Below are positions 70 through 42,881 of a DNA stretch of 64,000 bases, piece after piece. Position 1 is the stretch's first letter; each line of letters opens with the position of its first letter. The notes beneath the pieces were generated by a model. The model worked only from the letters and a program-made list of their open reading frames with translations, searched no databases and was not told the origin of the DNA. The position numbers and the translations under genes were made by a program. Origin of the DNA: Stramenopiles sp. TOSAG23-6 (Eukaryota); assembly GCA_900128565.1 (NCBI GenBank), contig LT635910.1, forward strand, positions 1-64,000, read 5' to 3'.

Positions 70-1162
70 AGAAAATCCTCAGACGATTTGACTAATAATG
101 GATTGGCTGCTACAATATTTCTTGTTGTATCAAGAGTAGTGTCAACTTTGATTTCATTATTACTAAGTTTCGCTGTATTTGTCTTGTTTGCTACATTTGA
201 GTTCTGAGTTGTTTGAGGTGTTTTCGATTCATCTTGAATTTTTTCTTCTGTTTGTTTCACTTCAAATACATTGGACGATTTTGTACCATCAGGTGTTGCA
301 TGTAATGTGAAAAAAAAAAAAATTTAACTTTTTTTTGTTAGGTACAAAATTTAGTATGAAAAAATTTTAAAAAAAAATTCAAAAAAAAATTCAAAACATA
401 CAAGGAAAAAGAAAATAATTCTACCTCCTGTGGGAACTCTAAATTCACCAACCAATGGATCATCAGAACTGCTTACAATCGTCCAAGGTAAAACATGCCT
501 CATTTTCCTTTTTTCACCGATAACTTTTTCAGCAAGTTTTGTAGCAGAAGTATGAGTGATAAAAAAGTATGTCAAATTTGATTTTGTTAGGTACAACATT
601 TTTATAAAAAACTATAAAAAAAAAAAAAAGAAAATTGAAAACAAAGTAAAAAACGTACAACTGATTTAACTCCAGCCGTCGCAACGACTTCAACAAGATC
701 GACCCCTACTCCACCAACAGCAAGGACTCCTTTTCCAACACCTTCAATACCATGTAATATAGATTTACCAACACTATTAGATCTTTCTCGCCCTGAAGAA
801 CTACTTGAGTATGTTTTTGTATTAAATTCATCTTGTCCTAAATCTAGACTTTCTGCTGAAAAGCGTGCAGCTGTCGACAGCACTGAACGTGCCTTAGATG
901 GCCGGAACTCAATAAGAACTGATAAAGTATGTTGTTGTGCAGCTATTCGCCAACGTATCGTATCTCCAGATATTACAGGATAAGCCTCATCGAAAGGTAT
1001 AGAATCACTTATAGTAATGCCATCACAATTTTGTATATCAACGTCAACTTCAAATCCTCGTAATAAATTGAAACCGTCAGATGCATTATTATAAAGTTCT
1101 TTGGGGTTCAAGTGACTTGAAACATTACCAGGTACTTTTTGATGCCTTTTTCGAAATGGCAT
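1..1162 (-). CDS. Multi-exon gene running off the left edge, with a GOLD-like domain; exons 1162-659, 548-402, 299-70
   Basis: ORFs 602-1162, 351-599 and 51-260 join in frame across T-rich introns with GTACGT/GTATGT donors. GDTIRWRI...GEFRVPTGGRIIFFF resembles GOLD-domain strands (inference). Confidence 0.65.
300..401 (-). other. Intron GT-AT, 102 nt, phase 0
   Basis: ctt|GTATGTTTTG...TACCTAAC...TTTTTCAC ATTACAT|gca aca cct. Removes an in-frame stop and joins FFFL to ATPDGTK. Confidence 0.75.
549..658 (-). other. Intron GT-CT, 110 nt (alternative GT-AT end at 552)
   Basis: gtt|GTACGTTTT...TACCTAAC...TTTATCAC TCATACT|tct gct. Both candidate ends are phase 0; spacing from the two motifs favours 549. 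Confidence 0.65.
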
Positions 1163-1724
1163 TTTTGTGATGGGAATGTTTCGTTAGGGTTGTAACGTAC
1201 TCTCCGTAGAAAAAGTGTTCTTGGGAAAGGACGACATTCAATCCATCGGAGATGTTTGGGCAAGAAAGATATTTTTTTGTAAAAATGTAACTGAAAAATA
1301 GATACCCGGTACTGCAAATGTAAATTTTCAAATTTAAATTTTTTCAATTTTCGAAATTGCAAAGAAATTCAAAAAATTGCTATATATAATATTATATGAC
1401 ATTGTTGTTGTTACTACTATAATACAACTATTGACAGTTGTGCACAATAACAAATAGAATCTGTATTTTATTACAAAAATAACAAAGACATGTGTAGTAT
1501 TACGACAATGTTGCTGACTAACCATAAACACCGCATAATATCAACAGATGTGTCAGAATAGAAATACCTGGTACCACTGCCATTAACTGTCCACAAACAG
1601 AAGAACAAAAAGATAAAGTATAGTCACTTCTACTATATACAATTATTAGAAGCCAAGCTTACAAGTGGTGAGCATGATACTCCTTTCAAGACCTGTGTTT
1701 TTTGTATATATTCTTTTTGTTGTT

Positions 1725-2772
1725 ATGGAAAAATTTGCGTCATCTACAGACCCGTTGTCTACTACAATGTCAACTACAATGCCCACTACAGATGGTGGTG
1801 ATATTTCTAAAAGGCCTCAAAGGAAACAAAAACGTTTTGATCAATTTGGTAAAAGAATCAAAGGAAAACAAACAGAATCACAAAAATATGCTGAAATGGT
1901 TAGTTTGAATAAAATACCTGAGAAGAAAATAAATGAAACAGTTGACGATAAAACTAAAGAGATTACTGAAAAAAAAAAAACTGGAAAAAATGACGGAGAC
2001 AATCTCAAGAAAAACGATCCATATTTTAACTACTTTCACACGTCCAGTACATCCGGCAAATCAATTTCAGTACCATTACAACACTCAAAAACTTGGCTTG
2101 GTCAGTTTAATTTGGGTTCAATTCCAAAAAAGTCAAAAAATCGTTTATATACGTTTATCACAGGAGCTCAACCAAAAACTCAAGAAAATAGTTATGTACG
2201 ATCTTGTAGCAATTTTCCATATTGTTCAGAAATTCCACCACCACCTCCGTTTTTACCGAGCCCTTGGGAAATACCTGCAAGTGATCCACTTCCAATATAT
2301 CCTAGTTTAGCTTCAGCTCCAATTGGAAAACAGGATGAAAGGTTACTAAATGACTACATCAAAACTCTTCCTTTACCGAGGCAAGAAAAAATTGAAAAAA
2401 AAAGACAAAAAGCAAAACAGATGGGTAATGATGCTCTTAAGAATTTTATATTGAGGCAAGGAGCTTATCCTAATCCGGATAATTTAGATATGAGACAACA
2501 TGTATGTTTTATATGAATTTAAAAAAAGGTTTCATACGAAATTTCATACCTAACGAATTTTTTTTTCATAGAAATTAAATTTTTTTTTCACAATACATAC
2601 TCTTGATCCAGAAACGGAACAACTCTGGCGACGTTCATATTTATCCGGAGTTGCAGTTGATAAAACGCACCAGAAAGTTTTGAAACTTCGACGAGAAGGA
2701 GGAAAAAATGGACTTTGGAAGACGACGTCGTTTTTTGAAGGTTTAAAAAAAAAAGTCCCTTCTTTTCGATAA
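1725..2772 (+). CDS. Hypothetical protein, 2 exons (1725-2501, 2599-2772), about 316 aa
   Basis: Lys/Pro-rich ORF from ATG 1725. It continues after the intron as TLDPETEQLWRRSYLSG to TAA at 2770-2772. No family recognised. Confidence 0.7.
2502..2598 (+). other. Intron GT-AT, 97 nt, phase 0
   Basis: caacat|GTATGTTTT...TACCTAAC...TTTTTCAC AATACAT|act ctt gat. Confidence 0.75.
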
Positions 2773-3077
2773 CACTTTATTTTTGTTAGGTACGAAATTT
2801 CGTACGAAAAAAAAACATTTAGATAAAACATTGAAAAAAAATAAAATTATACCATGAACTTGATGTTGATATTGAACAATAGGAACAATATACATACATT
2901 GAGAGAGAGAAAGAGAGTGATAGAAGATCATCCATCTTTATAAACAGAATATAACCATATATTTTTCAATTTTTAATCATTGTTTCATCAAAAATTGTTC
3001 ACTATTATTTTTATTCAACACAACTCAGGAAAAACTGAGAGAAACGATTTTTTGTGCCAAAAGCTTCTTGAACAACT

Positions 3078-3338
3078 TTAAAGTGTTGAATCTGATCTAC
3101 TGTTCTTTTTGTAAGCAACATGTGCTTGTATTCCCCAATGAAGCAGATAAAATACTACTACAAAGGCAATGAGTATACACAATGTTGTTCCAAAATTATT
3201 CTTATTCCACACTTTTCTAAATCTAATATTTCGACTATCTCTCAACAAATGAAGCTTTCTAATCGCTGTACCCTCGGCTTTATAATAGGGAACGTTCTTA
3301 CGCTTTTTCATAACTTTATTAGATGTATCAACTACCAT
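3078..3338 (-). CDS. Small single-pass membrane protein, 86 aa
   Basis: ATG-initiated ORF with a basic N-terminus and one hydrophobic segment (TLCILIAFVVVFYLLHWGI). Confidence 0.5.
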   Translation of the reverse strand: MVVDTSNKVMKKRKNVPYYKAEGTAIRKLHLLRDSRNIRFRKVWNKNNFGTTLCILIAFVVVFYLLHWGIQAHVAYKKNSRSDSTL

Positions 3339-3717
3339 TATAAACTTTAAAAGATTTCAAAAAAATATATTGATTTGTTATGACATTATTGATGTGAAAC
3401 AAAAAACGTGCCCTGAAAAAGAGGAACATGACATAGATAAAAAAAATAATAAAAAATTGAAAATTTTGAATTTCAAAACCGCGAAAAACGAAAACAAAAA
3501 AAACGGCAACGCAAACAAACAACCCTTTGCCGGTTTGGATTTGAAAGTTTCACACTGTTCCTACACTCTTATAAGTTTGAACTCTCTGCTTCTCGACCTG
3601 TAGCAGTAAAAAAGGTAACGATTTGTCTGTTGAAAACGCCAATTCGACATTCTGAGATTTATTGTGTAGTTAAGGCAGCTGTGGTTATTTAACTTGGTCT
3701 TATTACGATAGAATAGT

Positions 3718-5466
3718 ATGAAACAGCACACATATAAAAGATTACTGGGCAACGACGTAAAACAAGCGAGGAAAAACGCAACCAAGTTCCTTTTATGGTT
3801 CCTTGGTTTGACAATTGTTATTTTTCTTAGTCTTATTCTCTCCTATTATAACTCAGTTGTTAAATCCAAAGTTATGCACAGTATGTCTCCAAAAACATTG
3901 AAACGTGGCACGCAAGTTGTCGTTGGAAAATCGAGTGTTAATGGCGCAGAACTGATGCGCATGCAACAAGTCAGAGCCACCGCAAATCCGTGCCCTCGGC
4001 CCAGAATGAATACGCCCGCGGGATGGTGTACGCATACGGGAGCACATTACCTTTTAACAGATTGCGATGGAGATGGTATTGCCGACCATGTTTGCATGGA
4101 CCTAGGGGGAAATCTCGGTGTCATCCAGTCAAGCAATTCGTGCAAAGATTCGTGGCCACACGGAGAATGTATAGCGAAACCTGGCGAGGCAAGTAAGTGT
4201 AAAGCCACGGCTAGTGGTTGGGACGAGAAATGTGCGAAGCGAAATGTGCGTTTTTCATGTAATTTCGACATACCTAAAGAAAATGACAAATGTTTTTGGG
4301 ACGACTCATCAGACTGTGAACCTGTGTTTAGTATTATGAAGAAGAAAAATGGAAAGGAGAATTATGAATATATACAATGGAAAAAGTATTGTAGCGATTA
4401 CACAACACCAAATCCTTGTAATGATGCTGCATCGTATACGCCACCATACGGGTCATGGTATGATCCTTCTTCAAAGGCCCCATACTGTGCTCAATTTGGT
4501 TCGGAGGTTTGTACAGGGCATTGGTTTTGGCGTAGCTGTTACCAACCGTGCGCAAAGTGGCAGCCACAAAGGATCGGGAATGGAAGACCTGGTAATAATT
4601 GTGTATGGAAACCAACACAACACTGTGCTCCCTCGTTACGAGTATATAGCAATCCTTTATCTGAAGATTATGAATATGCTAAGAAACAGTGCGGATCTTA
4701 CACGACGTATGCAGAGTGTAGATCAACTGGAACAACTGATAATGATCCCCGACGGAAAACGGTAGACGGAAAAATTACAAACCGCTGTCGCTGGGATGAC
4801 TACAAACCCTACAAACGTATTGGTGAGACAAATCCAAAAATTAGTGATCAAGAGGGAATAAATTTAGGGAAAGTAGCCTATAAAGTTTTGGGTGATTGTG
4901 TGGACGCATGTGATAATGATAAACAATGTCAACACTTTACTGCGTGTTCAGAGGGTACTGAACAAAACTGTTATTTATATACAGGCACAGATCAATCGCA
5001 AGTAACAGAGAAAGAAGGCAAGAATTGTCAGATGTACTTTAAGGCTGAGTCGTATTTAAAAATTTATGTCAGTTATGAAAACAATGTTTTATATCAATCA
5101 TAGTTAATTCGTTTCAACAAAATTTCATATTGTATACATTATATCCCCTACGAAGACACAGGCGTGGAAAAACGAAATTTTCTTCCCTTAACACAATACC
5201 CTGTTTTGAAAGGTATAGGTGGTGCTAACGTAGATGACTGTCTGAAAGCGTGTGATAGTGATCTTCAATGTACAACCGTCAGTATAAATCGCCGACATGA
5301 TAATGCTATGTCGTGTCAACTATTCACGTTTGAAAAAACAGAAGATTTAACCAGAGCTGTCCCGACCCTTGGTTATGCAAAGCAGATATTTTATAAACCT
5401 GAGCTCAACTTTACATGGCACAAGGCTGAAGCACTTGGAGCTAAAGTTTCTTCAACAACAAGGTAA
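3718..5466 (+). CDS. Cys-rich surface or secreted protein with an N-terminal membrane anchor and C-terminal PAN/Apple-like modules
   Basis: TM segment near aa 24-44, many Cys/Trp, and two C-x3-C-x5-C modules (DCVDACDNDKQC, DCLKACDSDLQC). The two ORFs are in the same frame, separated by one TAG inside a probable intron. Confidence 0.75.
5052..5135 (+). other. Probable intron GT-AT, 84 nt, phase 2
   Basis: gag tc|GTATTT...TTTCAT ATTGTAT|a cat tat. Removes TAG 5101-5103. Lacks TACCTAAC, and a 36-nt GT-AG alternative (5068-5103) exists. Confidence 0.5.
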
Positions 5467-5719
5467 CTAACACAGTTCTATCACCAAGATAATGACAATC
5501 AACATAATGATTCATTTTTTAACTAGAATATAAACAAAGAATGAAAAACCATTTTTGTTCTTTTTTATTTATTTATGTACAGTGTTTCAATAAAAAAGGA
5601 TATGACTTTCGAGATAGTGGCAACCCAAAAGAAACAAAACCATAATGTTTCTATTTGATTTGTGCAGTAACTCCAGACGCACTCCAGACTACTTTTAGTA
5701 GTAATTGTGTCGTAAAAAC

Positions 5720-7198
5720 TTAGGTAAATCTGGCTCGGAGACCAGCCGTTGACAACGTTTTTTCCTCTGGGTGTAACTCCTCAATAAGCATATCAGGAGC
5801 AGACTGAGGTTTCAAGAGGAAATCAATTAAACGAATGGCAAGATAGTCATCAGATTGTGGATCCAGACCAAGATCATGAAAGACATGTATTGTTCGGCCT
5901 TTAAATGCGTTTCTCAATTGTTCGATATATAAAAGAGAAGGATTTTTAACCCCCTCTTCAGGAATTTGATCAATTGGTGTTTGAAGAGCAGCATAAAGAA
6001 GACCAAGGTGTACCTGGTGATCAGGAGGGCCGGTATTACCTGATAATTTAAACGCCAAGGAGTGCACAGCAAAGGCATCAAATTCTTTAATACGAAAGTT
6101 ATCTCCCATATGTCTTACGAAGTTCTCAGTGAGAGAAGCATTAAATAGACGAACAATTTTTTCTTGTATTTCCTTTGAGGCTTCATTAAAATACGTTACT
6201 TTCCAATTTTGATATGTTAAAAAAACGTTGTGAAGATACGATTGTACAGCTGCATCAGCTTTAGCAGTATCTGGTTCAGGTAAACCTGATGTAGAGTCGA
6301 AATATTCAATAGTGTATTGTTCTGTTGGTTCGGGTATTTTTCGAACATTTTCGCGAAGCGCATTAAGTCCCACTACCTGTTCAGCCCATGGCCCAACCTT
6401 GGATTCTTCAGCGTTGACTGCAGTGGTAACTGAAGTAATAACATCGTTTTCAAATGCGGCGTATTGATTTTTACGTACGAGGTGATTGAGAACAAACTGA
6501 CGAATAAAAGCATCAGTTTTGACTTTAATCTTTTCGTTTTTCGCATCATCAAAATTCATTTTAAAGATATCTTTTCGGGTGATCCAGAAACCAGCAACAT
6601 TGACTTCACGAAGTTTTTGCAGGGCATCAGGATATTGACTGATCAAAACTTTCCAATGAGTCCACGAAAACTTCGGTGGAGGATCGTCGTCGTTACCGCT
6701 AAATAAAACTTGGTCGCCATATTCGTTCATCATTTCGAGTGGTGTACGCATCCAGTTAAAACCTGGACCTTGTATACTGCACTGATTGATGTTTGCTTTC
6801 TCTGCAACCAGATATTCTTGAAGAGGAAGAGCGTCAACGTGACCAATGTGAACAACAATGTCACTGCCGTTTTTAGAGAATACAGGACGTTCAACAATAG
6901 GCATATCTCCCTCTTTAACCAAAGGGCTGCTGAACGGTATCCAACTTTGGATAGCACCAATAGGCCAAGCTCTTCCATTAACTGGTAATACCACATTATG
7001 GCTGATATCCATTTCTCCCATTACTTCATCGAGAAGTTTTTTTCGGTATGAACGAATCTCGATAGTTCCACCAACCGCGTATGTTTTGAGCTTTCCTGAT
7101 GTTCTCCCTAATAGGGACAAAGTTTGGTTCTGAAGCATGAAGATTAGTGGTCCCAATAAAACGAAAATTAATATAAGTATTTGTTGAGGGCTTAGCAT
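5720..7198 (-). CDS. Hypothetical protein with N-terminal signal or anchor, 492 aa; possibly nucleoside-hydrolase-like
   Basis: Long ORF with a hydrophobic N-terminus and a C-terminal VFHDLGLDPQSDDYLAI motif. Confidence 0.75.
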   Translation of the reverse strand: MLSPQQILILIFVLLGPLIFMLQNQTLSLLGRTSGKLKTYAVGGTIEIRSYRKKLLDEVMGEMDISHNVVLPVNGRAWPIGAIQSWIPFSSPLVKEGDMPIVERPVFSKNGSDIVVHIGHVDALPLQEYLVAEKANINQCSIQGPGFNWMRTPLEMMNEYGDQVLFSGNDDDPPPKFSWTHWKVLISQYPDALQKLREVNVAGFWITRKDIFKMNFDDAKNEKIKVKTDAFIRQFVLNHLVRKNQYAAFENDVITSVTTAVNAEESKVGPWAEQVVGLNALRENVRKIPEPTEQYTIEYFDSTSGLPEPDTAKADAAVQSYLHNVFLTYQNWKVTYFNEASKEIQEKIVRLFNASLTENFVRHMGDNFRIKEFDAFAVHSLAFKLSGNTGPPDHQVHLGLLYAALQTPIDQIPEEGVKNPSLLYIEQLRNAFKGRTIHVFHDLGLDPQSDDYLAIRLIDFLLKPQSAPDMLIEELHPEEKTLSTAGLRARFT

Positions 7199-7290
7199 TT
7201 TGTTTTACTTTTATAATTATTTATGAATGAAATATACAANTGACCTTAAATGGACGATCCCGCCATTTCTAGTTCCTGAAATAGCAAAAT

Positions 7291-7396
7291 AAAATAGCAG
7301 ATTTGACATTTTTCTCGAGATTTCGTGCTCAATGACGCGCCATTCCTGAAAATTTGAAAAAAATAGCAGATTTGACATTTTTCTCGAGATTTCGTG
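7291..7396. repeat. Direct repeat, two 37-bp copies, 69-bp period
   Basis: aaaatagcagatttgacatttttctcgagatttcgtg at 7291 and 7360, between divergent genes. Confidence 0.9.
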
Positions 7397-7525
7397 TTCC
7401 ATTTTTGAAAATCTCAAATTTTTCTCAAATCGAACTCTGACTCCTCCCTGAAAAAAATCGATTTCTTCTGCTGCAGATTTATTTACGTATTTTTAATAAG
7501 TCCCGTAATTGATTAATAAAGTTCG

Positions 7526-8626
7526 ATGATTTCTCACTCACAGCAACCAGCACAAACACATCTGAATAAGACTGCAGTATTCACAAGTACTCAGAAAATG
7601 AATGTGATTACAGTTCTAGTTTCTGGTGGTGCCGGTCAGATTGCATATTCTTTATTACCTTTGATTGCCCAAGGTAAAGTTTTTGGACCTAACACAAGTG
7701 TTCACTTACGTCTTCTTGAAATACCCAGAGCGGTGGACGCTCTCAAGGGTGTTGCAATGGAACTGCAAGATTGTGCGTTTCCTCTTTTACTATCAGTTGT
7801 GTGTACGAGTGATAATGCTGAAGCTTTTACGGGTATTGATTATGCTGTTTTACTTGGTGGTTTTCCACGTCTACCAGGTATGCTACGTAAGGATCTCATT
7901 GAGAAGAACGTCGGTATTTTCAAAAACGCCGGTGAATCTCTTGAAAAGTATGCAAGTTCGAAGGTAAAAGTACTTGTAGTTGCAAACCCAGCCAATACAA
8001 ATTGTTTGTGTACTATGTGGTATGCCCCTTCAGTTCCACGAGAAAATTTCTCTTGTTTAACTCGATTGGACCACGAACGACTTCGGGGTCAAATAGTGTC
8101 AAAAATTAATGAAAATCGTAAAGAAAATTTCATTTCTACAAGTGACATTAACCATTTAGCTATATGGGGAAATCACTCAGCCACACAGGTCCCAGATGCA
8201 ACGTTTGCTACGATAAATCAAGATTCAAGACCTCCTCAAAATGTCACAAATGTTGTGAATAATGAGGCATGGTTTCAAGGCCAGCTTTGTGATACTGTGA
8301 GGAGTCGAGGGAAAGCTGTTATAAATGCTCGGGGAAAGTCGAGTGCTTTATCTGCCGCTAATGCCATTGGATTACATTTACATGATTGGTATCATGGCAG
8401 CCGTAGCGGTGACTTTGTCTCCATGGGTATTCCAACTGATGGTAATGACTACGGAATTCCTGATGATCTCGTGTTTAGTTTTCCTGTAGTTACATCTTCT
8501 ACTGGCAAAATTAATATTGTATCAGGTTTAAAGCTATCAAAATGGACACGGGAGCAGATTAAAAATACGGTGAAGGAATTGATTGAAGAAAGAGAAGCAG
8601 CTAAGGCTGTCATTTCTAAACTATAG
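7526..8626 (+). CDS. MDH1: Malate dehydrogenase, cytosolic (MDH1) type
   Basis: VLVSGGAGQIAYSL, KVLVVANPANTN, LTRLDHER, IWGNHSATQVPD, ARGKSSALSAA. The start could be 7598. Confidence 0.95.
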   Translation: MISHSQQPAQTHLNKTAVFTSTQKMNVITVLVSGGAGQIAYSLLPLIAQGKVFGPNTSVHLRLLEIPRAVDALKGVAMELQDCAFPLLLSVVCTSDNAEAFTGIDYAVLLGGFPRLPGMLRKDLIEKNVGIFKNAGESLEKYASSKVKVLVVANPANTNCLCTMWYAPSVPRENFSCLTRLDHERLRGQIVSKINENRKENFISTSDINHLAIWGNHSATQVPDATFATINQDSRPPQNVTNVVNNEAWFQGQLCDTVRSRGKAVINARGKSSALSAANAIGLHLHDWYHGSRSGDFVSMGIPTDGNDYGIPDDLVFSFPVVTSSTGKINIVSGLKLSKWTREQIKNTVKELIEEREAAKAVISKL

Positions 8627-8933
8627 TTGTTTCGTTTTGTGTATTTTTGTCCCTCTTCTATATGCTAAATTCATTAAAAAATTAAATAGAATAATTTGTA
8701 ATTTAGTCATACTTGGTTGTACTTGGTTGTATTGTATAACTAAAATTGATTTATCTATGTTTGTTTTTTCTCGCTCCTTGTCATAACGCAAAATTAGTGT
8801 TTTTTTTTTGTCTTGTTTGTTGCAGGTTTGTAATGTGTTGAATTTTTTTCAATTTTTTTTTAATCGTCGTCGTTCTATTATCAATGATAAATATTTCATA
8901 ATATCTAACTGAGTTAATTTTGGTATCAAGTGG

Positions 8934-10406
8934 ATGCGTTTAGTTCATTTTCACAAAATGCGTCCCAATGTATTATCTTTATGCTCTATTATAATTTTAC
9001 TTCTTATATTTAGAGGCAACTGTGAGTCCAATAACCACGAATTAGAGGCAGCAGAAGCTACTACGGAAGCCATGACATTGTTGAACGACGGAGACCTCCA
9101 AGGTGCCTTAGAATTATTTGAAGCTGCTACGATTTTGTTTCCAACAGCCAGTAGTTATAATAACTATGGTGTTACTTTAATGAGACTTTTCATGAAAGCC
9201 AAATCATCTAATGATCCTCTTAATCCAGCTATTTTTTTAGAAAAATCACGGAAAGCTTTTCAAACGGCACTTAGTCTAGATCCTTCTAATAAAAAGGCGA
9301 AACGTAATATCGCAAAACTGATTACTTTAGATCATCCTATACAAAAGTTTCAAATGAAAATTCCAAGAGTTACAATGCAGCAACTTGCTCAAAACATTAC
9401 TCTTTTAACAGGCACGTATCCTTATATTATTACTGACGCGATGAAGTCGTGGACAGCTATTGACTTGTGGAAGGATGAAGATTATCTCGTGAATATTATA
9501 GGAGATGAATGGGTTGATTTTTACGCCAAGAATATGAAACTTGTGGGTGCAAAACCAATATTATATAGGTACACCGATGCTCATAAAAGATTCAAAATTG
9601 ATATGAGGGACGATAAAGGTCATCCAAGATATCTTCAATTTCGATTAAGCAATTCCGGTTGGAAAAAATTGAAACGAGATTTTGGTACATCAACATCGTC
9701 TAGTGGTCGATTTTTACCAGATGTAATGTGGACAGAAGATGATTGGTTGTATCAATGTGTACCTGATCCAGAAGATGTCGATAATTTTTTGAGAGTCAAT
9801 CAATGGAATATGCTTTTAATTGGTGAGATAGGAACAGGAATGTTCCTTCATCATGATCACTTAGCTGCCGCTTCATGGCAAGCGCATATAATTGGTCGAA
9901 AAGAATGGATCATTTGTCCATACAATCAATCACATCTAATTGGAAATACCAAAAAAGGAGGTGAGCATATTATGCCTTTTGATAATGTCGATTATACAAC
10001 ATTTCCTAATTTTTCTCAAGCGTTTTGTGGTAGAGAAATCCTTTCACCAGGAGAAATTCTTTATTATCCTGCCTACTGGTGGCATGCAACACAATGTTTA
10101 GATAGACCTACAATAGGTATTACAGGATTATTAGTGGGAAACGAAGATGAACGGAGTGATATTGGTGGTACGACATCTGTACATGAACGTTTTGCAAGTG
10201 ACATCTTGGCAAAGTGTCAGAATTGTTGGGATGATGACTGTCATGATATAAATTGTCGTAAATGTCCTGATATATCAGAAAAATGGCCTGGGGCAGCACC
10301 ACCCATAAGTAAAAATGTGTGTAATAATATAAAAGATTGTTTAGTTCTTTGGGAAGAACATTATAACACACGAAATGCAACAGAAAATAATAAAAATGAA
10401 TTATAA
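8934..10406 (+). CDS. TPR plus JmjC (2-oxoglutarate/Fe oxygenase) protein with signal peptide
   Basis: TPR-like SYNNYGVTL...AFQTALSLDPSN; JmjC FLHHD, GRKEW, PGEILYYPAYWWHAT. C-terminal KNEL resembles an ER-retention signal. Confidence 0.85.
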   Translation: MRLVHFHKMRPNVLSLCSIIILLLIFRGNCESNNHELEAAEATTEAMTLLNDGDLQGALELFEAATILFPTASSYNNYGVTLMRLFMKAKSSNDPLNPAIFLEKSRKAFQTALSLDPSNKKAKRNIAKLITLDHPIQKFQMKIPRVTMQQLAQNITLLTGTYPYIITDAMKSWTAIDLWKDEDYLVNIIGDEWVDFYAKNMKLVGAKPILYRYTDAHKRFKIDMRDDKGHPRYLQFRLSNSGWKKLKRDFGTSTSSSGRFLPDVMWTEDDWLYQCVPDPEDVDNFLRVNQWNMLLIGEIGTGMFLHHDHLAAASWQAHIIGRKEWIICPYNQSHLIGNTKKGGEHIMPFDNVDYTTFPNFSQAFCGREILSPGEILYYPAYWWHATQCLDRPTIGITGLLVGNEDERSDIGGTTSVHERFASDILAKCQNCWDDDCHDINCRKCPDISEKWPGAAPPISKNVCNNIKDCLVLWEEHYNTRNATENNKNEL

Positions 10407-10957
10407 AACAAGCGAAAATATGTCTGATTCGTTGGCTTCCAAGTATGATCAAATCAAAAACGATGCTTCAGAAAACGCAAACGTTAAAACTTTCAAGAAG
10501 TTCAAGAAGGGGAATCAAGGGGAATCAAGGGAAACTATCCAGGATGGATCAATGTTGAAGAGATTCGAGAAACATTTGATGATCTTGAAAATCTCAAATG
10601 AAATATAAGATATAAACCCTAACCCTAATGAGAAATAAAAGTGAGATGGAATTGCTTATAGAACACATATATAAGTTCAAAAAATAAAAGCATGTGTAGA
10701 ACACATAGATAATTTGATACAAAAAATAAAAGCATGATTACAATTTATAATGTATAAGTTTTATACAATATTTTCTTGAAGTGTTGCTGGTATAAGTTTT
10801 ATATAATGTTCTCTCAAGGTGTTCACCTTGATTCCAAATTTCATTCATTTTATAGATAGGGTTTGTGTGCTCAACAATTTTAAGAAATATGTTCCAAAAA
10901 TCCATTTGAAGCAAAATGTCGAATCTGCAAAAGAGTTCCTCCTCCTCCTCTTTAGTA

Positions 10958-12451
10958 TTAATTCATTGTAGTATCAAATGGTGCACCTGCTGCTCCATAG
11001 GGTTGAATGTCATTCACAGGGTATCTCCGTTTACCTGATTTTGAGCGTTTTTCTAATCTATCTTTCAACGATTTATAATAATTAAATCTTTGTTTTACAA
11101 TTCCTTGGCGTGCCACAATTTCATGTTTCTTTTCAGTTTTCAAATGAGTATTTATCATTTTTTGTCTTTCTCTTCGAAGTTTTTGAATGGCTTTGAATTT
11201 TTGTGATTTTATATTATTTTTTTTTGAATTTTCTAAAAATGCTATCGTATTTGTTCGAATACCAATGGATGGTATACAAAATTGTTCTTTGGGTGCACAC
11301 TGGGATGCACTGCCAGGGACTTGTTCAAATATAGTACTATTTTTCTGTTTATAACTATTTTCAAAACGTGAAAGATTTCGTGTATTTTGCNCATTATATT
11401 TTGACCCGTTCTTTGGACTAACAATGGAAGAACTATTCCCACATGGCAGCCATGAAAAATCGATTGATTTATCTTGTACCGTTTCATCCAACTTTGCATG
11501 TTTCTCCTTTTCTCTGAAATCCTGAATTTCGTACCAAAGTTTCTTACGTCTAAAAGTATTGAGCATATTTTTTCTGCCAAAAACTTCTTTATTTTTATTT
11601 TCATCAAACAAAGCCTTTTTTTCATTTTTTTCAAGATGATTTTCAAGTTTTTTAAGTTTTTTAAGCTTTTTAAGATTTTTATTACTTGTTTTACCATTCT
11701 GACGTTTTTGTTTTAGTAATGATGACGCAATTGATATTTCATCATCAACGTATACATTTTTCATCATTTTCTTATATCTTCGTAAAGCTGTCAATCCAGC
11801 AGGTTCGTTCAAAATGCCATCTTTACTCATGTTTACATTGCTATAAAGAGGATATAAAATATTGACTAATTCTCCGTATTGCAACATATTATCATTATTT
11901 TCATCGAAATTTTTATACAAAGTTGAGAGTTCCTTGTCATTAAGAATAATTCCAAATCTGTTAAACATTTTTTTGATTTCTTTACCTTCTAAGGCTCCGT
12001 CTCTATTGGAATCATAATTTAGAAATAACTTATTCAAACTTCGATCTGCGACTCGATCACGAAATAAATCTATTTTGCTCTTCGATTGGGTTTGTGCTTT
12101 CGATGACTTTACTTTGCCCCGTATTGTTTTGTCCTTATCTGTAGTTTTGTTGGTATCTGTAGAACGACTATGGAGGCCATTTTTATATCTTTCTAGTGTC
12201 AATTTTTTCGAGTTTATTTTTTCACTATTTTTTATACTAGGATGTCGAATTCTCGGTGTATAGTTGTGATATTCGGGTATTCTATACGTCGCATCATATT
12301 TTGGTTCTACACTATTAGACTTTTTATCGTGCATTGGAAGTGTTGTCAAAAGCTTATTTTTCTGTAATCGACTTTTATGTCTCCGTACATGATCTCGAGA
12401 GTTCTCTTCTCTAACTCTCTGTGACGTCTCACGTCTTGAACGCCGGGACAT
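10958..12451 (-). CDS. Basic EF-hand-containing protein
   Basis: EF-hand pair DSNRDGALEGKE and DENNDNMLQYGE. Confidence 0.8.
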   Translation of the reverse strand: MSRRSRRETSQRVREENSRDHVRRHKSRLQKNKLLTTLPMHDKKSNSVEPKYDATYRIPEYHNYTPRIRHPSIKNSEKINSKKLTLERYKNGLHSRSTDTNKTTDKDKTIRGKVKSSKAQTQSKSKIDLFRDRVADRSLNKLFLNYDSNRDGALEGKEIKKMFNRFGIILNDKELSTLYKNFDENNDNMLQYGELVNILYPLYSNVNMSKDGILNEPAGLTALRRYKKMMKNVYVDDEISIASSLLKQKRQNGKTSNKNLKKLKKLKKLENHLEKNEKKALFDENKNKEVFGRKNMLNTFRRKKLWYEIQDFREKEKHAKLDETVQDKSIDFSWLPCGNSSSIVSPKNGSKYNXQNTRNLSRFENSYKQKNSTIFEQVPGSASQCAPKEQFCIPSIGIRTNTIAFLENSKKNNIKSQKFKAIQKLRRERQKMINTHLKTEKKHEIVARQGIVKQRFNYYKSLKDRLEKRSKSGKRRYPVNDIQPYGAAGAPFDTTMN

Positions 12452-12846
12452 GTTTCAATAGAAAGCAAATATTCTTTGGAATTAAGTGTTTCGGTGCTTA
12501 CTGCAATGAGTAGCTAGTAACTCCAAATTTGTAGGTGTGTAAATGAAGTAGTAACCAGCATCTTTCAAATAAGAAAGAAAGTAGTAAAAGAAGATATCGT
12601 CTGTAACTACCGTATTTCCGGTTCCGTTATAAATTCAGCGCGTTTTTCGGGTTTTGTTCCAAACTTCCCTCCTCGAAGATTCAACTATAGCTAGTAGAGG
12701 TACTGAGTAGTAAGAAAAGAATATATTGTATACTTGATAAAAAGTATTACAATTTACTCTACATACTTCCATAGTATTGTTATTATCAAATTATTGATTA
12801 AATTTTACATCTTTAAAGTCATATAGTTATATTTGTAGCAAATAGT

Positions 12847-13371
12847 ATGTCGTCTGGAGGAAACTTTGGTACTCGCGACAGAGATATTTTTGATGATGTT
12901 CTTTTACTCGAAGAAAAATTTCATCAGGAAGGAGTAGAGTCTGGTACTTTACAGGGGACGGAAATGGGAGATCGTGAAGGCAGGGCTCTTGGTCAGAAGT
13001 ATGGTAATAGTACTGGTTTGGAGGTTGGTTTTTATATTGGTTGTGCTGAATCTTGGGCAGCTTTAGCAAAAAAACACCCTGAAAAGTTTAGTAGACTAAC
13101 ACTGAGAACATTACAATTACTCCGGAAGAGACTCGTCGATTTTCCACTTATAGACCCAGAAAATATTAATATTACTGATCAACTAATGCAACTTAGATCT
13201 AAAGTACGACTTATATCAACAAGGTTGTCATTAAAGTTGACTGGGATCCCTCGTAGAGAGGAAAACAATTCTAGTAAAGAGGAAAACAATTATTCTAGTG
13301 AAAGAATTGACTGGCTTCTTGAAGAAGCTACAATAAGTGCTAATAGAGAAAAGCGAGGAATGTCATTCTAA
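12847..13371 (+). CDS. LTO1: LTO1/ORAOV1 family protein (Yae1_N repeats)
   Basis: DIFDDVLLLEEKFHQEG followed by Gx3 repeats to GLEVGFYIG. Confidence 0.85.
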   Translation: MSSGGNFGTRDRDIFDDVLLLEEKFHQEGVESGTLQGTEMGDREGRALGQKYGNSTGLEVGFYIGCAESWAALAKKHPEKFSRLTLRTLQLLRKRLVDFPLIDPENINITDQLMQLRSKVRLISTRLSLKLTGIPRREENNSSKEENNYSSERIDWLLEEATISANREKRGMSF

Positions 13372-13464
13372 TATTTTTTAACGTTTTTATGTACTATACT
13401 AAAACAAATCAATGATTAATAAATAAATGTTACAGATTTTTGTGCTCTCTTACTGTCCAAATTT

Positions 13465-15508
13465 CTACACTTTTGTTGTAAAATTAGACGGAAATGCGCC
13501 TTTATATCGTTCTAACTGAGTATTTCGTGCATTTTCTGAGAAGAGCTGTAAAATATCAGTCACAGATACATTCAAACCTTCGGAAGCTTTAGTTATATTC
13601 ACTCCGATCCACCATCCCTCGTCTGTGCCAGAGGTAGAAACTATTGCAATTTGATCTCCACGTGAAAAAGACAATTCATCACTGTGAACTGCCTCATATT
13701 CAAATTTGGCTGTTCTCAAATTATAGACAGGATTTTCTGTACAATACCCACTCATAGAAGTATCAGTCAAAGGTTTCATTGGTGATATTGGAGCTGTTTT
13801 CATAGCGCTATCAAACACATCTAACCCACTCATTGAATTCATTAAATCTGGAATATCTGGTGTATTATTAGGGTTAGGGTTAATATCTGGAGTATTTCGT
13901 CTCTTTTTGTTGACCAAACTTTCATTTTGAGTATTTTGAGTATTTTGATTATTTAGAGTATTTTGAGTATGTGGGTGTGGGGGGGAAGATCTATTATTTC
14001 CGTGATGATGTCCATATATTGAGAAAAAATATGTTTACAATTTGAAATTTGTTAGGTATAGAATTATAGATGTAAGACATACAAAAACAAAATTTGATAT
14101 TGAAAAGTACATGATGCCTTTTATGATCTGCGGGAGGCGGTGGGGGTGGTTTCTTTTTATGTTTCACTGGAATAGCAGGACGCGGTAGCACAGGTTTTAA
14201 CAATTGTGATGGGGGTGATGGAGGAAGTGATTTCTTATCATGATTATTATTTATATTTCTTTTGTATTGGTTGATTTGTTGAGGATTTTTTTTGTTTTGG
14301 TTGTTTTGTTGAGAATTTAAGTCACTCAATGAATGTTCTACATTTTTTTTCCCACCAGAGCTTGATGTATAACTACCATTTCTACTGTGTTTTGAATTAC
14401 TTTTTACGTTACTATATGCTGTAGAGGTTTCATGGAATGTTGGCATTTCAGAAGCTTGAATATCTGAAAAATTCTTCATTGTACCATGAGTGGAAATAGA
14501 CTGTATTTGTGGTATGTGCATTGCCTTACAGCTTGATGCCATACTACCAACTGTAAAATATCCATGACGTTGTTCCCATCCACTTGCTCTTGCTATATCG
14601 TGAATGGTTGTGTTATCTAAACTACCTGATTCAACACCAGCAGCTTTTTCGCATTGACCTGGGCCAAATTGAAGTTTGTGTTTATTTTCGTATAAAACGG
14701 AACCAGATAAACGTCTCAATTTTATCATGTGTAATGAATTGGGAGGTACAGTACAAGCACAATGTCTACCAAAACGTTGTCTTCCACTAGAAATATGATT
14801 TCTAATTGACGTGATAGCTTGTAGAGTGTTGCTCAATAATATAGGTGCATTTCTATCAACGGCTCTCATTTCCTCATAAAATCGATCTCGTACTGTTTTA
14901 GTTTTCGTCTTTAATGAGCTTATCTTACTTAATTTTATCTGATAGAGTTCCTTATCAGATGCAGTCTTTAGGTGGGATGGATCGTACTTTGGAGTATTCA
15001 AAAGTTCATATTTTTGAGCTGCCAAGTCGACCATTAGCTGTCTGAAATCTGAAGCACAATTACGAACCTTTGGGGCATGTCTCAACCGTTTACGTACAGG
15101 GCCTAATACAGCATCTTCAAAAAATACTTTAACAGGATCCATAATAGCATGGGAAGCAATCATCTGAGTTTCAATAAATTGTTCTAGATCTGACTGTGAA
15201 TATCGAAGTTGTGTTGAAGGTGCACGATCACCGTCAATAGCATCTTCTCGACAAAATGGTTTCTTCAATAAAGGATATAGTTGCACTAATCGTTCAGTAA
15301 CCTTTGATTCAGCTTGTTCAGCTTCCTGAATTTTAACCCAGTAGTCTTCTAGCGAAGAGTGTAATAATTCAATCTCGCGAACGAATTCTTCGTATCTGTG
15401 TGAGTCTTCCTCAAACTCTACATCCACAGTTTTTTCAGTCACCCCAATCTTTTCACGCAACTTTTGTTTCATAGCGCGACGCCCGTCACTTGTAAACATT
15501 TTAAACAT
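13465..15508 (-). CDS. BAR domain, Pro-rich linker and SH3 protein; exons 15508-14111, 14013-13465; about 648 aa
   Basis: N-terminal QKLREKIGVTEKTVDVEFEE is BAR-like. SH3 reads AKFEYEAVHSDELSFSRGD...GWWIG...GAFPSNF. Confidence 0.8.
14014..14110 (-). other. Intron GT-AT, 97 nt, phase 0
   Basis: cat cat|GTACTTTT...TACCTAAC...TTTTTCTC AATATAT|gga cat cat cac. There is no AG inside the intron. Confidence 0.75.
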
Positions 15509-17325: not shown

Positions 17326-17346
17326 CTTTGCTAATAAATTTTAATC

Positions 17347-29700: not shown

Positions 29701-32700
29701 AAATGCGGCAATGAGCTCAGGAAATCGCATTAAAAAGAAATCAATACGTTTTAGTAATAATAGATGTTTTCTACTCAAGGATGAATTGTTTTTGTTTTTA
29801 CTGTAGCTATCTTTCAAATCATTGATTCCAGAACGGTCTAATAAGAGTTGTACTATAGTACAGCACACAAGACAATGACGTTGTTTGTACGTACGTAGAA
29901 TATGTAGTATAATATGTACAATCATACGAATTGTCGCAGGCTCTACGGAGATACTTCCAAGTAAATCGATACAAAGTTCAAATGATTGTAGTAATCGATT
30001 AAGAATATAAACATTATCACATTCATGAATGTTTTTGTTCATCAGTAAAAGAACTTTCTCAGTATTTGCACGTTTTAATAAATCTTCTGGGGTTTGTTTA
30101 GATTTATGTCTACTAGCAAAGTGAACAATTGCTTTCCGGACACTTTTGATATTTACTAACGCAAGCGTACCTGATTTTTCTAATGCAGCGACAGAAAATA
30201 ATCTATTGATTAACCCCAATGTTTGTTTTGGAGTACACAAGCCATTCATCATTTTAGATACTGAACCGTATATATTGACTAACCATTTCTCTGCTTGTGT
30301 CGCCAATTTATGATCTGTTGGAAGTTTGGTGAAATAAAGAGGTAGAAATGAACCGACTATATCACCTAAATTTGCATCAATAAATTGGCAAATTGCAGAT
30401 TTCAGTATATTTGAATCACTTTGAATAGAAATATTTTTCATATTAATTGATCCTTGTAAATGCATTGCACTTACTAAAAGTTTTATACGCTCCGCGTTTG
30501 AATTTCGTACAATTAAAACTGATAATACTACAGGTAATGCTCCACAATGCTCTGATAAAAAATTGTTCCAACTACTCGTTCCCATTAATGATATTGGGAA
30601 CGATTCTATAGATGCATACTCTTCAATCCAACGAAATAAAATATATTCGAGATATTCTTGTAGATATTCCTGAGTATTTTGAAATCCCAAAGAAGTAGCA
30701 ACACGTGAGAGGATACATGAAGTACTACACTCAATTTCTGGAATACAATAAAATGTACACAACTTATATAACGAATCTCGTCGGTGTTCAAGTACTTTAC
30801 TTCTTTTAGCGACTTCACCAAGTGTTAATAACCCGGTAATACATTTATTGTTTTGATTCATATCGTCATTAGATGACTCATCTTTCTTAGTTTTGATTCT
30901 TGGCATTATACATTCAATGGATTGATCTTTTACTAACACAGAAAACGACTCAACTTCAGTTAATAAAGGTATTACGCTAGATGCAACATGACGCACGGAA
31001 TATTCATTATCTTGCAATAATTTACACGAAATGACTAAAAGCAATTCACCAAACTCACCAGGGGCAATATAAAACCAAGGTATAAGTGTAATTAACCACA
31101 ATCGACGAACTATCGAGTTACGCCAACTTTTTTTATCTTTACCCACAAATTTTAATAAAGCTTCCACATTAGCTAAAATATTATAATTATTTTGATCACT
31201 GGATGAAGTAACAAAAGAAATAGTAGTCGTATTTGAGGAATATAACATCATACCAATATGATATAGTAAACAAAGCAAACGAGACTGGATTTCTGGATGG
31301 CCATGATATTCAGACATAACTAAACGAAATATTTCTAAAATGTCATTTAATCCAAATCTACGTAGATTTTTTTTAGTACAATGATAATGAATGATTAAAT
31401 CACATGCACAACCAATACAAGTCAATGCTATCACTGGGTTTGCAATGAGTTTGGGATTTTTTAATATTTGGCGTATTTGTTGTATTACATTTTTCACTTT
31501 TAAAATTTTTAAATCTTGAATATTTTTTGATTTACTTTTACTTGATTGAGTTTCTTCATCTGACGAATAAATACATGTCATTATTGTGTTACATTGCAGC
31601 ATCAAACAAGTACACATACAAAGTTCAATAATATTATTTGACCCATTGATGACTTGAAGCATGTTTGTTCCCGAATGAGTGACTTGACTACAATACACAA
31701 CCGAACAAGACGCTAGAAGGTCTAATGAAAATAATTCATCTACCTTTAACATTCTTTTTGTTCTATTATTATATTCATTTTCAACTCTATTTTTTCCATT
31801 ATAATTTTCTGTATCAATATCATCCTCATCACTATCGAAGCCACCGCTGCAACTTCTTTTTCCAGATAAATTCATTTCAAAAGACTGATATGATGTAGAT
31901 TGTGTTTGTTGCATTGTTTTCATACACAAATCTATATGCTGTGTTAACCATTTTAATATACAGTTTACATAATCTTTATTCTTGTACACTAGACTACTGC
32001 TACATTTTTCAGTATCCAAAGAATTTGAATTATGATCAACATCGTTATTGACAAACATTCTAGACGATAAATATATTATGGTAGAAGGATCCATAGTGAA
32101 TGATTCATCATACTTTGTTACATTTTGATTATTTGATGTATCACAAAATTTTCCCAAACAAATGGTCATAAAACGTTTTACTCTAGCAATCAATTTGAGA
32201 GTATTTTTCAATGCCGTTTCACATTGAGAACGTTTTAACGAATTGACCAATGCATTTAAAACCTTTTTCATTGCACTTGTTGAAGAAACAACAAAAGCTG
32301 TAATTCGACAAAATGTTTTCATACTAAACTTCTTACCTAAATCCTTTTTTACATTATTCTTATCAATGTCCATTGATTCTTTCTTATCTGTTGAAGAGTT
32401 TTCTACATATTCCTCATAATATTGTTGAAGTTCTATAAATGATGCATTTACAGTATCAATAACCATTGATACAAGCACACGTTGTTGTTCTATTGTAACT
32501 AAATTCATACTTACAAACGTTGGAACATTTGGACAATTACCTAAAGGATCAGCATTTGGCAAATTCGAAATTGAATCTGTACCTAATTTCGTACCTAACG
32601 AATTTCTAATTTGTTGAGAGTCATCTACTGTAGTGTCATATTCAAACATATGATATAATGGATTAGTACTAAATAACACGTTCTCAGCATTTGAAATCCA

Positions 32701-39458: not shown

Positions 39459-39720
39459 AACATTTGAAAAAAAATAAAAGTAACAATAACACAATATATA
39501 TGAGGAGAAAAAACAGTTCTCAAAAGTATTTTTATGTTTTTATTTATGTACAAAAAAATGTAGGAAACTACGTACCTAAATGACGTTAGTCAATGGTTCT
39601 GTATATTGTTTCATATTGTTTCATTCTAATAAAAATACACGATCAAACACTATAAACAATGTTTTTTACGTCATCTATCAGTCAATGTAAAGGCAACTCG
39701 AAATATAAATAATGAAAATA

Positions 39721-40917: not shown

Positions 40918-41244
40918 TTTGGAAGAAATTAGACCGTTGTAGTGTGCTACAGATGTGTTCGAAGTGCGTTCGAAGTTGTCCCGACCTCTTCACTTGAAAC
41001 TACTCGATGCACACTGACTTTATTCTGGAGAAAAACGCATTTTCGTACTTAAAAATCCGTACCAAAAAAGTGGAGAATTCAAAATTTCAAACACGTGTTA
41101 CATTGATGATGTCTGTGAGTCTGTCACGTCGACTGGTCACTCGCACTGGCCAAGTGATCCAGATCCACTGCTGGCCAACGAAAATTGGAAGGTTGATGAA
41201 AAAAAGTTATCTCAAGATTATACAATAAGTGCAACAATCCCAAT

Positions 41245-42881
41245 ATGTTTCCTGTACATACATGTAGACGCTTCTTTTCTTCACCAGCTGTCCGTGAAAG
41301 GAGCGTTGATTTTGGCGATATTGTACGTGCAAGTTCATACTTTCGCGAACAAGCTTTCATTGGTGGTACATGGGTTGATAGTACTTCGGGTAACAGCTTT
41401 GATGTAGTCGACCCTGCTTCTGATGAATATATCGGAAGTGTACCGGATATGAATGCTAATGATACTGATATTGCCATTCGTGCTGCTGAACATGCTCTAC
41501 CCTCCTGGTCTAGAAAACTTGCGAAAGAACGTTCTGCAATTCTTGAAAAGTGGCATGATCTTATGCTACAAAACAAGGATGAGCTGGCTCAGATTATGAC
41601 ACTGGAATCTGGTAAACCCCTTGCTGAATCCATTGGTGAAGTTGTTTATGGTGCATCTTTTATAAAATGGTTTGCGGAGGAAGCAAAAAGAGCTTATGGT
41701 GATATCATACCTGAACCTTTATCTGGTCGAAAACTATTGACAGTGAAAGAACCAGTGGGAGTATGTGCTTTTGTGACACCATGGAACTTTCCTATTGCAA
41801 TGATCACACGAAAAGCTGCCCCAGCACTTGCTGCTGGATGTGCCTTTGTTGTAAAACCCTCAGAGGAGACCCCTTTTAGTGCTTTAGCTTGTGCAGCAAT
41901 TGCAGAGGAAGCAGGTTTGCCCCCTGGATTATTTAATATAGTAACATCATCGAGAAAAAATACACCTGAAGTAGGTGAAGTTCTTACAAATAGTAAAATA
42001 GTGAAAAAATTTTCATTTACTGGTTCAACAAAAACAGGAAAAATATTGGCTAAGCAATGTGCTAATACTGTTAAACGCGTATCCTTGGAGTTAGGTGGAA
42101 ATGCACCATTTATAGTATTTGATGATGCTGATATAGATGCAGCTATTCAAGGCGTTATGTACGTTTTCATCATGAATTTGAATCTTTTTTTTTTTTCGTA
42201 CTACATTTCGTACCTAACAATTTTTTTTTTACTAAAACGAAAAATATTTTTTCACCGCACATGGATTCTAAATTTAGAAATACTGGACAAACTTGTGTTT
42301 GTGCCAATCGTATTTATGTACATGATACTATATATGATGAATTTGCTGATTTGTTAACTCAAAAAGTAAAGTCTATGCCTGTGGGTCATGGTGCTGTTAA
42401 GGGTGTATTATCAGGGCCTTTGATCAATAAGAGTGCTTTAGAAAAAGTTGAGGATCATGTAAGTAATGCTGTAAAGTTAGGTGCAAAAGTCTTAACTGGA
42501 GGTGATAAACATATTGCTGGTGATAACTTTTATATCCCTACTGTTCTCTCTGAAGTAAATCAAAATATGAAAATAGCAAATGAAGAAACATTTGGTCCTG
42601 TAGCTCCATTATTTCGCTTTTCTAATGAAGAAGAAGTTATAACTGCAGCTAATAATGTTGATTCTGGACTTGCAGCATATTTATATTCAAGAGATATTGG
42701 ACGAGTTTTTCGAGTTTCTCAAGCTTTAGAATATGGAATGGTTGGTGCAAATGCTGGTGTTATATCATCTGAAGTTGCTCCATTTGGAGGAGTGAAAGAA
42801 AGTGGTTTAGGTAGAGAAGGTGGAAACATTGGTATGGATGAATTTATGGAAGTGAAATATATTTGTTTAGGTGGGTTATAA
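41245..42881 (+). CDS. ALDH5A1: Succinate-semialdehyde dehydrogenase; exons 41245-42158, 42263-42881; 510 aa
   Basis: TPWNFPIAMITRK, FTGST, LELGGNAP, SKFRNTGQTCVCANR, EETFGP, PFGGVKESG. Confidence 0.95.
42159..42262 (+). other. Intron GT-AT, 104 nt, phase 2
   Basis: gtt at|GTACGTTTT...TACCTAAC...TTTTTCAC CGCACAT|g gat tct restores QGVMDSKFRNTGQ. There is no AG inside the intron. Confidence 0.9.

Follow-up and report, generated by a model that had tools for sequence, protein, structure and literature searches.

Introns with GT 5′ ends and mostly non-AG 3′ ends in a DNA segment from a marine stramenopile

We analysed a 64,000-nt stretch of DNA from Stramenopiles sp. TOSAG23-6 (contig LT635910.1 of assembly GCA_900128565.1, positions 1 to 64,000; hereafter the window) and the introns that interrupt its genes, most of which end in dinucleotides other than AG. 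The window is AT-rich (G+C 28–40% per 2-kb step) and gene-dense, with long open reading frames (ORFs) on both strands and few breaks. Genes named by Pfam families include malate dehydrogenase, a CLC channel, a mitochondrial carrier, a longin SNARE, a prenyltransferase and an RNase PH exosome subunit, among others. A public protein (P0001), whose source label includes ‘MAST3’ and ‘assembled CDS’, is 99% identical to the window over the aligned parts of exon 1 of an aldehyde dehydrogenase gene, and we therefore assigned the window to that MAST-3 assembly. Judged from its sequence, the source is a marine stramenopile of the MAST-3 group with an intron-poor genome; passages of PMC5778133 describe assemblies of this sort, from the MAST-3 group, as made from single cells.

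The initial annotation had placed 11 introns in the window and given the dinucleotides at their ends, and all 11 were confirmed on the printed sequence. Gene A, a minus-strand gene of unknown function, contains two: 300–401 (102 nt, GT..AT), which includes an in-frame stop, and 549–658 (110 nt, GT..CT), which joins the ORF frames 605–1183 and 354–611 and ends 7 nt past a CAC triplet. On the plus strand, gene B (no Pfam family) carries intron 2502–2598 (97 nt, GT..AT), which matches a three-box pattern described below, and a PAN-domain gene carries the probable intron 5052–5135 (84 nt, GT..AT), whose removal takes out a single in-frame TAG at 5101–5103 and whose boxes are weaker (GTATTT at the 5′ site, CAT followed by 7 nt at the 3′ end and no CTAAC). 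Intron 14014–14110 (minus strand, 97 nt, GT..AT) links the BAR-like and SH3 parts of one gene; it requires a +1 frame change, and its 3′ box is CTC plus 7 nt. The intron of the CLC channel gene, 20492–20595 (plus strand, 104 nt), runs from GT to AG, its end lying 7 nt past CAC. Four introns interrupt an ATM-like gene on the minus strand: 24176–24283 within the kinase domain (108 nt, GT..AT or, in another register, TG..TA); 24632–24838 (207 nt, GT..AG), with the 3′ box TTCACATTACAG as in the non-AG introns; 26149–26323 (175 nt, GT..AT), where the ORF limits oblige removal of 26169–26301 and an antisense copy of a repeated core lies near the 5′ end; and the probable intron 28244–28345 (102 nt, GT..TT), which is in frame and stop-free and matches all three boxes in full. 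The last intron, 42159–42262 (plus strand, 104 nt), lies in a succinate-semialdehyde dehydrogenase (SSADH) gene and is read as GT..AT, although TG..CA and AT..AC also fit.

One further intron of this kind came from an unrelated contig. We scanned public metagenome contigs with a degenerate pattern of the repeated core and obtained 14 loci, 13 of which were judged from their context to be chance matches. The remaining contig (L010; 3.2 kb, 35% G+C) contains a 104-base intron of the same family that joins two ORFs in frame; it reads GTATGT, then CGTACCTAAC, then TTTTTCACAATACAT, then GG, and its end is ACAT. All 11 window introns begin with GT, as GTAYGT in 8 and GTAYTT in 3, and with L010 included these counts become 12/12, 9/12 and 3/12. 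At the 3′ end, the window introns finish in AT (7), TT (1), CT (1) or AG (2), and L010 raises the count of AT to 8 of 12. The terminal AG expected of a U2-type intron is absent from 10 of the 12; the final intron base is T in 10/12 and G in 2/12, and A or C in none.

A MAFFT alignment that took in 10 introns out of the 12 (7 genes and L010) revealed three conserved blocks at a mean column identity of 54%. The two long introns (24632 and 26149) were left out of the alignment and show the same 5′ and 3′ boxes by eye. The first block is the 5′ site, (T)/GTAYGTTTT with variants, where the slash marks the boundary. The central block ends in (T)ACCTAAC and contains a branch-like box, which is CTAAC in 8 of 12 introns, CTAAT in one and ATAAC in one, with no clear box in 5052 and 20492; the distance from CTAAC to the 3′ end is 38–45 nt in the five introns in which it was counted. 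The third block comprises a T-run, CAC and seven bases, with the consensus TTTTTTCACAATACAT ending at the splice site. Exactly 7 nt separate the 3′ triplet from the intron end in 12/12 introns (CAC in 10, CAT in 5052 and CTC in 14014), and this spacing holds in both AG introns too (CACATTACAG and CACTATATAG). This constant spacing, kept in the AG introns as well, suggests that the box is read as a unit that fixes the cut. The three boxes in order (GTAYGT, gap, CCTAAC, gap, TTCAC) match five times in the window, with none expected and no match in 100 shuffles. The extended 5′ GT site, the upstream box with its putative CTRAY-type branch site and the pyrimidine tract, seen here as a T-run before CAC, are features of U2-type introns. 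The earlier description of 3′ recognition as ‘relaxed’ is not supported: the 3′ end carries more information than usual, in the form of the T-run, the CAC and the fixed 7 nt.

A scan of the window with a position weight matrix found no further convincing family member. A weak candidate lies on the minus strand at 39498–39638 (GTATTT .. TTTTTTCTCCTCATAT); it is past the stop of the mitochondrial carrier gene, possibly in a 3′ untranslated region.

To find RNA joints, we compared contigs from four of eight runs with positions 1–20000 of the window, a span that covers 5 of the 11 introns. One contig from run X5, a polyA metatranscriptome, joins position 298 to 401 and skips the 102 nt of intron 300–401 (depth 5.2; shorter side 84 letters; 2 ambiguous letters). 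Its sequence departs from that of the window at 166, 199 and 200, and it therefore derives from another, related strain rather than from the assembly. Three registers are allowed at the joint (TA..TG, GT..AT and TG..CA), none of which ends in AG. An AG located 15 nt past the branch box of this intron is skipped in the RNA, so the choice of its 3′ site does not depend on AG, in agreement with the AG independence that the initial annotation had proposed. The same annotation had stated that several introns lack an internal AG; this is true of 14014, 24176, 28244 and 42159, and not of 300, 549, 2502, 5052 and 26149. From the branch box to the cut, no AG occurs in 549, 14014, 24176, 28244 and 42159. 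Six of the seven RNA joints were dismissed, as their shorter sides measure 21–28 letters and lie within A/T runs or the repeated core. No RNA joint was seen at 549, 2502, 5052 or 14014 in the four runs over this span, where missing coverage is not evidence.

The RNA contigs and L010 also bear on whether the T at the last position could be an artefact of single-cell amplification or assembly, or a G restored by RNA editing. Ns are indeed scattered through the assembly, and the CLC channel gene has one frame break. However, this end recurs at 9 sites that are independent of one another and in the independent metagenome contig, and unspliced RNA contigs extend over the 3′ ends of introns 549 and 2502 with no mismatch there among the differences listed; one of them, X3 369–597, confirms the DNA sequence in the 3′ part of intron 549–658. 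U-to-G editing is, to our knowledge, not a known reaction. We find an artefact barely credible.

Protein homology fixed two further non-AG junctions. The SSADH exons match Pfam Aldedh positions 1–256 and 260–461, and the sequence across the junction of intron 42159–42262, GVM/DSKFRN, is identical to that of the homologue P0002 (68% identity). The public model P0001 instead takes an AG 15 nt downstream of 42262 as the 3′ site and loses DSKFR. Comparison of this junction region with shorter proteins gave 702 matches, the best of them 68–73% identical and none from this species. In the ATM-like gene, for which 5 of 150 listed matches were aligned, exon 4 matches human ATM 2844–2956 along its whole length, its terminus ..IHDP corresponding to ATM 2956. 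The codon split by intron 24176–24283 encodes L; a relative, P0244 (81% identity), has HDPLYRWSRTQPEAL here and two plant homologues have HDPLYKWALSPLKAL, and the window reading matches all three. The public model P0243 uses the second GT of GTACGT with a downstream AG, and LYKWARTR is lost. The AG intron 24632–24838 is likewise exact by homology, with exon 3 reaching to about ATM 2842, exon 4 starting from 2844 and one codon split between them (FPLPCEWYA in P0244, FPLP-C-MWYA in the window). A search with the protein of gene A exon 2 for spliced fragments gave no candidate, and the first 30 residues of ATM-like exon 5 had no match in PDB.

The exact junction is thereby proven for three of the nine non-AG introns in the window: 300–401 by the RNA joint, and 42159–42262 and 24176–24283 by protein continuity. 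These results uphold the proposal that real introns in intact genes are spliced at non-AG sites.

The exon base directly 5′ of the intron is T in 9/12 introns (8/11 in the window), a position that is usually G in other eukaryotes. With T at the end of both exon and intron, the register at many junctions is ambiguous by one base (TG..CA). TG..CA as a common register fits only part of the introns. AT-AC as a common register fits 2502 and 42159 and is ruled out by the RNA at 300–401, and at 24176.

The reading that we consider probable is that these are genuine nuclear U2-type introns that form one homogeneous, introner-like family of about 100 nt, in which the 3′ site is set by the extended box and the intron ends in U. 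Several points weigh against it. Proof covers only three of the nine non-AG junctions, and the spliced RNA is one contig from one run. Unspliced RNA contigs span X3 369–597, X5 2524–2718 and X3 4857–5129, although these may be pre-mRNA or library DNA and are uninformative on the junctions. TTCAC in the 3′ box would itself satisfy a loose branch consensus, though the triplet in 14014 is CTC, and the position weight matrix was trained on the introns that it recovered, which makes that scan circular. The family is not young, with a mean identity of 54%, and no terminal inverted repeats (TIRs) or target-site duplications (TSDs) were seen, so mobility is read from similarity alone. Intron 28244–28345 is in frame and stop-free and is called by motif only. 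With 11 introns from 64 kb and a single further contig as the sample, a genome-wide majority is an extrapolation. Finally, frame permits an ordinary intron at four of the other sites when phase and AGs are checked manually in the printed sequence: at 549–658, a pairing of the second GT of GTACGT and an AG 25 nt downstream, an in-phase 70-nt GT-AG intron using the internal AG at 2570–2571 within 2502–2598, a GT-AG intron at 5072–5155 in place of 5052–5135, and an AG 21 nt downstream of 26149–26323.

These options raise the alternative of ordinary GT-AG introns spliced at nearby AGs, with the AT ends mis-assigned. In-phase GT-AG options exist at 42159 as well as at these four sites, and at 24176 with a shifted donor, and P0001 and P0243 use such AG sites. 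By contrast, the RNA joint at 300–401 has no AG register, and the AG options at 42159 and 24176 delete the conserved DSKFR and LYKW.. residues. Moreover, a 16-nt box is common to the AT ends, and no motif unites the alternative AGs. Mis-assignment is excluded for the three proven introns, and as an account of the whole set we regard it as very unlikely. The remaining six non-AG calls, which are weaker and depend on the shared architecture, are supported because the 16-base box and its spacing also mark the three proven junctions and the alternative AGs lack a common motif. At 14014–14110 the next two downstream AGs (+23 and +95) are out of phase. If 28244–28345 were read through, a basic linker would gain 34 mostly hydrophobic residues immediately ahead of a block conserved in P0249 and P0251.

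The fixed distance of the 3′ end from a conserved box is also what might be seen if the minor (U12-type) spliceosome, or one like it, removed these introns. The U12 machinery tolerates GT-AT and sets the 3′ site by its distance from the branch site, and TACCTAAC in these introns loosely resembles the U12 branch consensus. U12-type introns have their branch box, TCCTTAAC, about 10–20 nt from the 3′ end and RTATCCTT at the 5′ site. However, RTATCCTT is found in 0/12 introns, and the nearest branch look-alike, TACCTAAC, lies 38–45 nt from the 3′ end, which is too far. Rfam gave no match in the window or L010 and so no U11, U12, U4atac or U6atac in the window, of which 64 kb says little. GT-AT accounts for 7/66 functional non-canonical U12-type introns in Table 2 of PMC1557818. 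On balance, we consider removal by U12-type machinery unlikely.

Non-canonical boundaries in a repeated family are also found in Amoebophrya, as described in passages of PMC7789003, and they could reflect non-spliceosomal removal by pairing of the intron ends, as in euglenids or Amoebophrya, or excision at the DNA level. Folding argues otherwise. RNAalifold on 10 introns gave 0 consensus pairs. For an end-to-end helix, 60.7% of cells pair, compared with 59.4% in shuffles, and the single folds of 6/12 introns were no better than shuffles (z +0.32 to −1.59). The RNAalifold result and the shuffle comparison rule out an end-to-end helix as the mechanism. A second candidate, pairing of 5′ GUAYG with YRUAC just 5′ of the branch box (alignment columns 1–5 and 76–80), was possible in 87.5% of cells, compared with 87.2% in shuffles, and showed no covariation; this pairing is a property of two conserved, partly palindromic motifs only. 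Intron-end pairing is not the mechanism. The strong GTAYGT and CTAAC signals also speak against non-spliceosomal removal, which we judge highly improbable.

The similarity among the introns extends to a repeated element. A 21-base core, GTTAGGTACGAAATTTCGTAC, occurs in 8 copies at ≤3 mismatches, compared with 0 expected. Three copies lie in introns in the sense orientation, which provides CTAAC, and one is antisense in intron 26149. Outside introns, a perfect palindromic copy (two overlapping matches) is located at 2785–2810, directly after gene B, and two antisense copies, at 27197–27217 and 32579–32599 (minus strand), are in frame within the ATM-like ORF, where they read QQI(R/Q)NSLGTKL(G/S)T, 5.4 kb apart. 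The core thus seems to be spliced out in one orientation and tolerated as coding sequence in the other. RNA contigs were placed in numbers (446 from X1, 456 from X3 and 176 from X5), and hundreds of them pile on the core, so that many copies of it must be present among the transcripts of this organism or of related ones; RNA depth reaches about 1500 at 2669–3335 (X1 and X3), with many loose ends at 2782–2785 and 2815. Introns 24176 and 42159 share about 30 nt past the 5′ site. Many similar introns in unrelated genes are the mark of introners. No TIRs shared among the introns were seen by eye, and direct repeats at their borders are 1–4 nt long and inconsistent.

Two modules that consist of a branch box and a 3′ box and have no donor lie at 45840–45900 and 46100–46130 (minus strand), between the RNase PH and sugar-transporter genes, and adjoin short inverted repeats. 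No matching donor for these modules was found in the intergenic stretch 45840–46130.

Such repetition is what would be expected from a founder effect, in which one introner-like element ending in CAT spread and the spliceosome merely tolerates the last U, its rules otherwise intact. This explanation overlaps with a U2-type family read through its 3′ box and differs from it in whether the machinery changed; none of the observations conflicts with it. In its favour, the likeness goes beyond the splice signals, as in the 30 nt shared by 24176 and 42159; copies of the core occur outside introns and antisense within an ORF; and both AG introns carry the same box. The usual spliceosome, as known from yeast and mammals, handles 3′ sites changed from AG to AU poorly, and spread would have been possible only if the machinery already accepted U. 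In addition, at 54% identity with conservation concentrated in the three boxes, the family looks like the product of selection on signals rather than of recent copying, and no TIR or TSD was found. A founder effect without re-specification is thus possible, but we are inclined to doubt it.

If the introns are U2-type and their 3′ sites are specified by the box, the first step of splicing would most likely be ordinary, with a 5′ site and CTAAC box as in major-type introns. The 3′ cut would then fall at the end of the T-run/CAC box, where U is the usual final base and G an occasional one; AG would be neither needed nor preferred, and the box with its fixed spacing, rather than a scan for AG, would set the site. 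This would imply a change in the reader of the 3′ site. Candidates are U2AF1 together with U2AF2, a factor of the second step, or an RNA able to pair with the box, for example a small nuclear RNA (snRNA) with a stretch complementary to CACAAUACAU. The family may have spread as a mobile or copied element, and such spread would explain why so large a share of the introns has one and the same unusual end. Extending this to the lineage, we tentatively suggest, short of favouring it outright, that MAST-3 has a major-type spliceosome with a rewritten 3′ rule, in which a U-run/CAC box directs cutting 7 nt downstream and introns are mostly GT-AT genome-wide. If so, the reader would have been re-specified, be it a factor like U2AF1, a factor or Prp8 surface acting in the second step, or a box-pairing snRNA, and the catalytic centre would accept a pair of G(+1) and U(−1) in the second step.

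We compared this architecture with known systems. Introns of budding yeast carry GTATGT and TACTAAC, and the window introns share with the U2-type introns of such intron-poor genomes the GT, GTAYGT, a CTAAC-type box, a T-rich tract, short uniform length and a low number per gene. They differ in their non-AG 3′ ends (10/12), in the CAC+7 box and in skipping an AG after the branch box. Trichomonas and Giardia introns end in AG, and their conserved motif, which is the branch site, is joined to the 3′ site with constant spacing; the invariant distance from motif to cut is shared, whereas here a separate CTAAC box lies 38–45 nt upstream and the ends are non-AG. The non-conventional introns of euglenids rely on end pairing, which was not seen here, where the 5′ GT and the branch box are kept. 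Those of euglenids and diplonemids have variable borders and represent a lineage-wide departure from GT-AG (PMC12621601).

A parallel in its 3′ ends is the tunicate Fritillaria borealis, for which PMC13326754 describes genome-scale non-AG 3′ ends, including AU, a modified major spliceosome and duplicated, divergent U2AF1 and U2AF2 that recognise the non-canonical 3′ ends. In that animal GT/AG is kept in <10% of introns and the 5′ end is also non-GT; by contrast, the present introns, from a stramenopile protist, have a 5′ GT in 12/12 and a long conserved 3′ box, and the Fritillaria-type combination of non-GT 5′ and non-AG 3′ ends occurs in 0/12. The rare GT-AT introns of animals, of both U2 and U12 type, have the same terminal dinucleotides and show that such ends can be spliced productively, but they are single exceptions, with one conserved U2-type case named (PMC1557818), whereas GT-AT is the most frequent class among the introns sampled here. 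As for introners, passages of PMC7789003 describe those of Aureococcus and Micromonas with direct repeats, TIRs of constant length and canonical splice motifs, and those of Amoebophrya with hairpin-forming inverted repeats and variable boundaries. The present family similarly repeats in unrelated genes and has copies of its core elsewhere, but it has no TIR, TSD or hairpin and has one fixed non-AG boundary pattern.

No description of MAST-3 splice sites was found in the literature searched. Introns are mentioned in only two places in the main text of PMC5778133, both in the methods (supplements excluded). Neither ‘intron’ nor ‘splice’ occurs in PMC12614181, and in PMC8163842 ‘intron’ occurs 0 times and ‘splice’ once. 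The initial annotation's statement that no GT-AT-majority system has been described agrees with this search and with these three MAST genome papers. In the known genome-scale departures from GT-AG (Fritillaria, Amoebophrya and the euglenozoans, diplonemids included) the boundary pattern is in each case a different one.

The terminal AG is among the most constant signals in eukaryotic gene expression and is read twice, once by U2AF1 and once during the second catalytic step. A free-living protist lineage in which most introns end in U, with GT and a branch box retained, would offer a natural experiment in 3′ site choice and proofreading, and it would stand apart from the cases known in tunicates, euglenozoans and dinoflagellates as an independent one. 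Gene finders bound to GT-AG mis-model genes of this abundant ocean group. In addition to the loss of DSKFR, P0001 (41245–42881) shows two more internal gaps where SSADH sequence is conserved, and P0243 (23769–26148) reads into intron 24632 and begins only past intron 26149, which splits the ATM-like gene. Because these public models lose conserved residues or split the gene, functional inventories of MAST-3 may be biased. A member of the clade, Incisomonas marina, is cultured, as stated in PMC8163842, and the question is therefore experimentally tractable.

The assembly itself has several irregularities. A run of 120 Ns (18847–18966) lies within the ORF of a carbon-nitrogen hydrolase, and further Ns are found at 7240, 11391, 23324, 23560–23574, 46261–46279 and 54137, which fits a gap-filled single-cell co-assembly. 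The CLC channel gene has a frame break at about 20840–20865 (plus strand) with no intron signal: the ORF 20596–20862 terminates in ..AELRDFLGWCFLCC followed by a stop, and the next frame resumes at ..LAGVFFVVEEASS. Conserved sequence between the two frames seems to be missing, which could reflect a deletion, an assembly error or a pseudogene. We also observed telomere-like doublets (CCCTAACCCTA or TTAGGGTTAGGG) in intergenic positions near the ends or starts of genes, at 10617 and 17926 (plus strand) and 55149 (minus strand). A doublet of this kind also directly follows a stop codon in the unrelated contig L010, and these doublets may be a shared regulatory or terminator motif.

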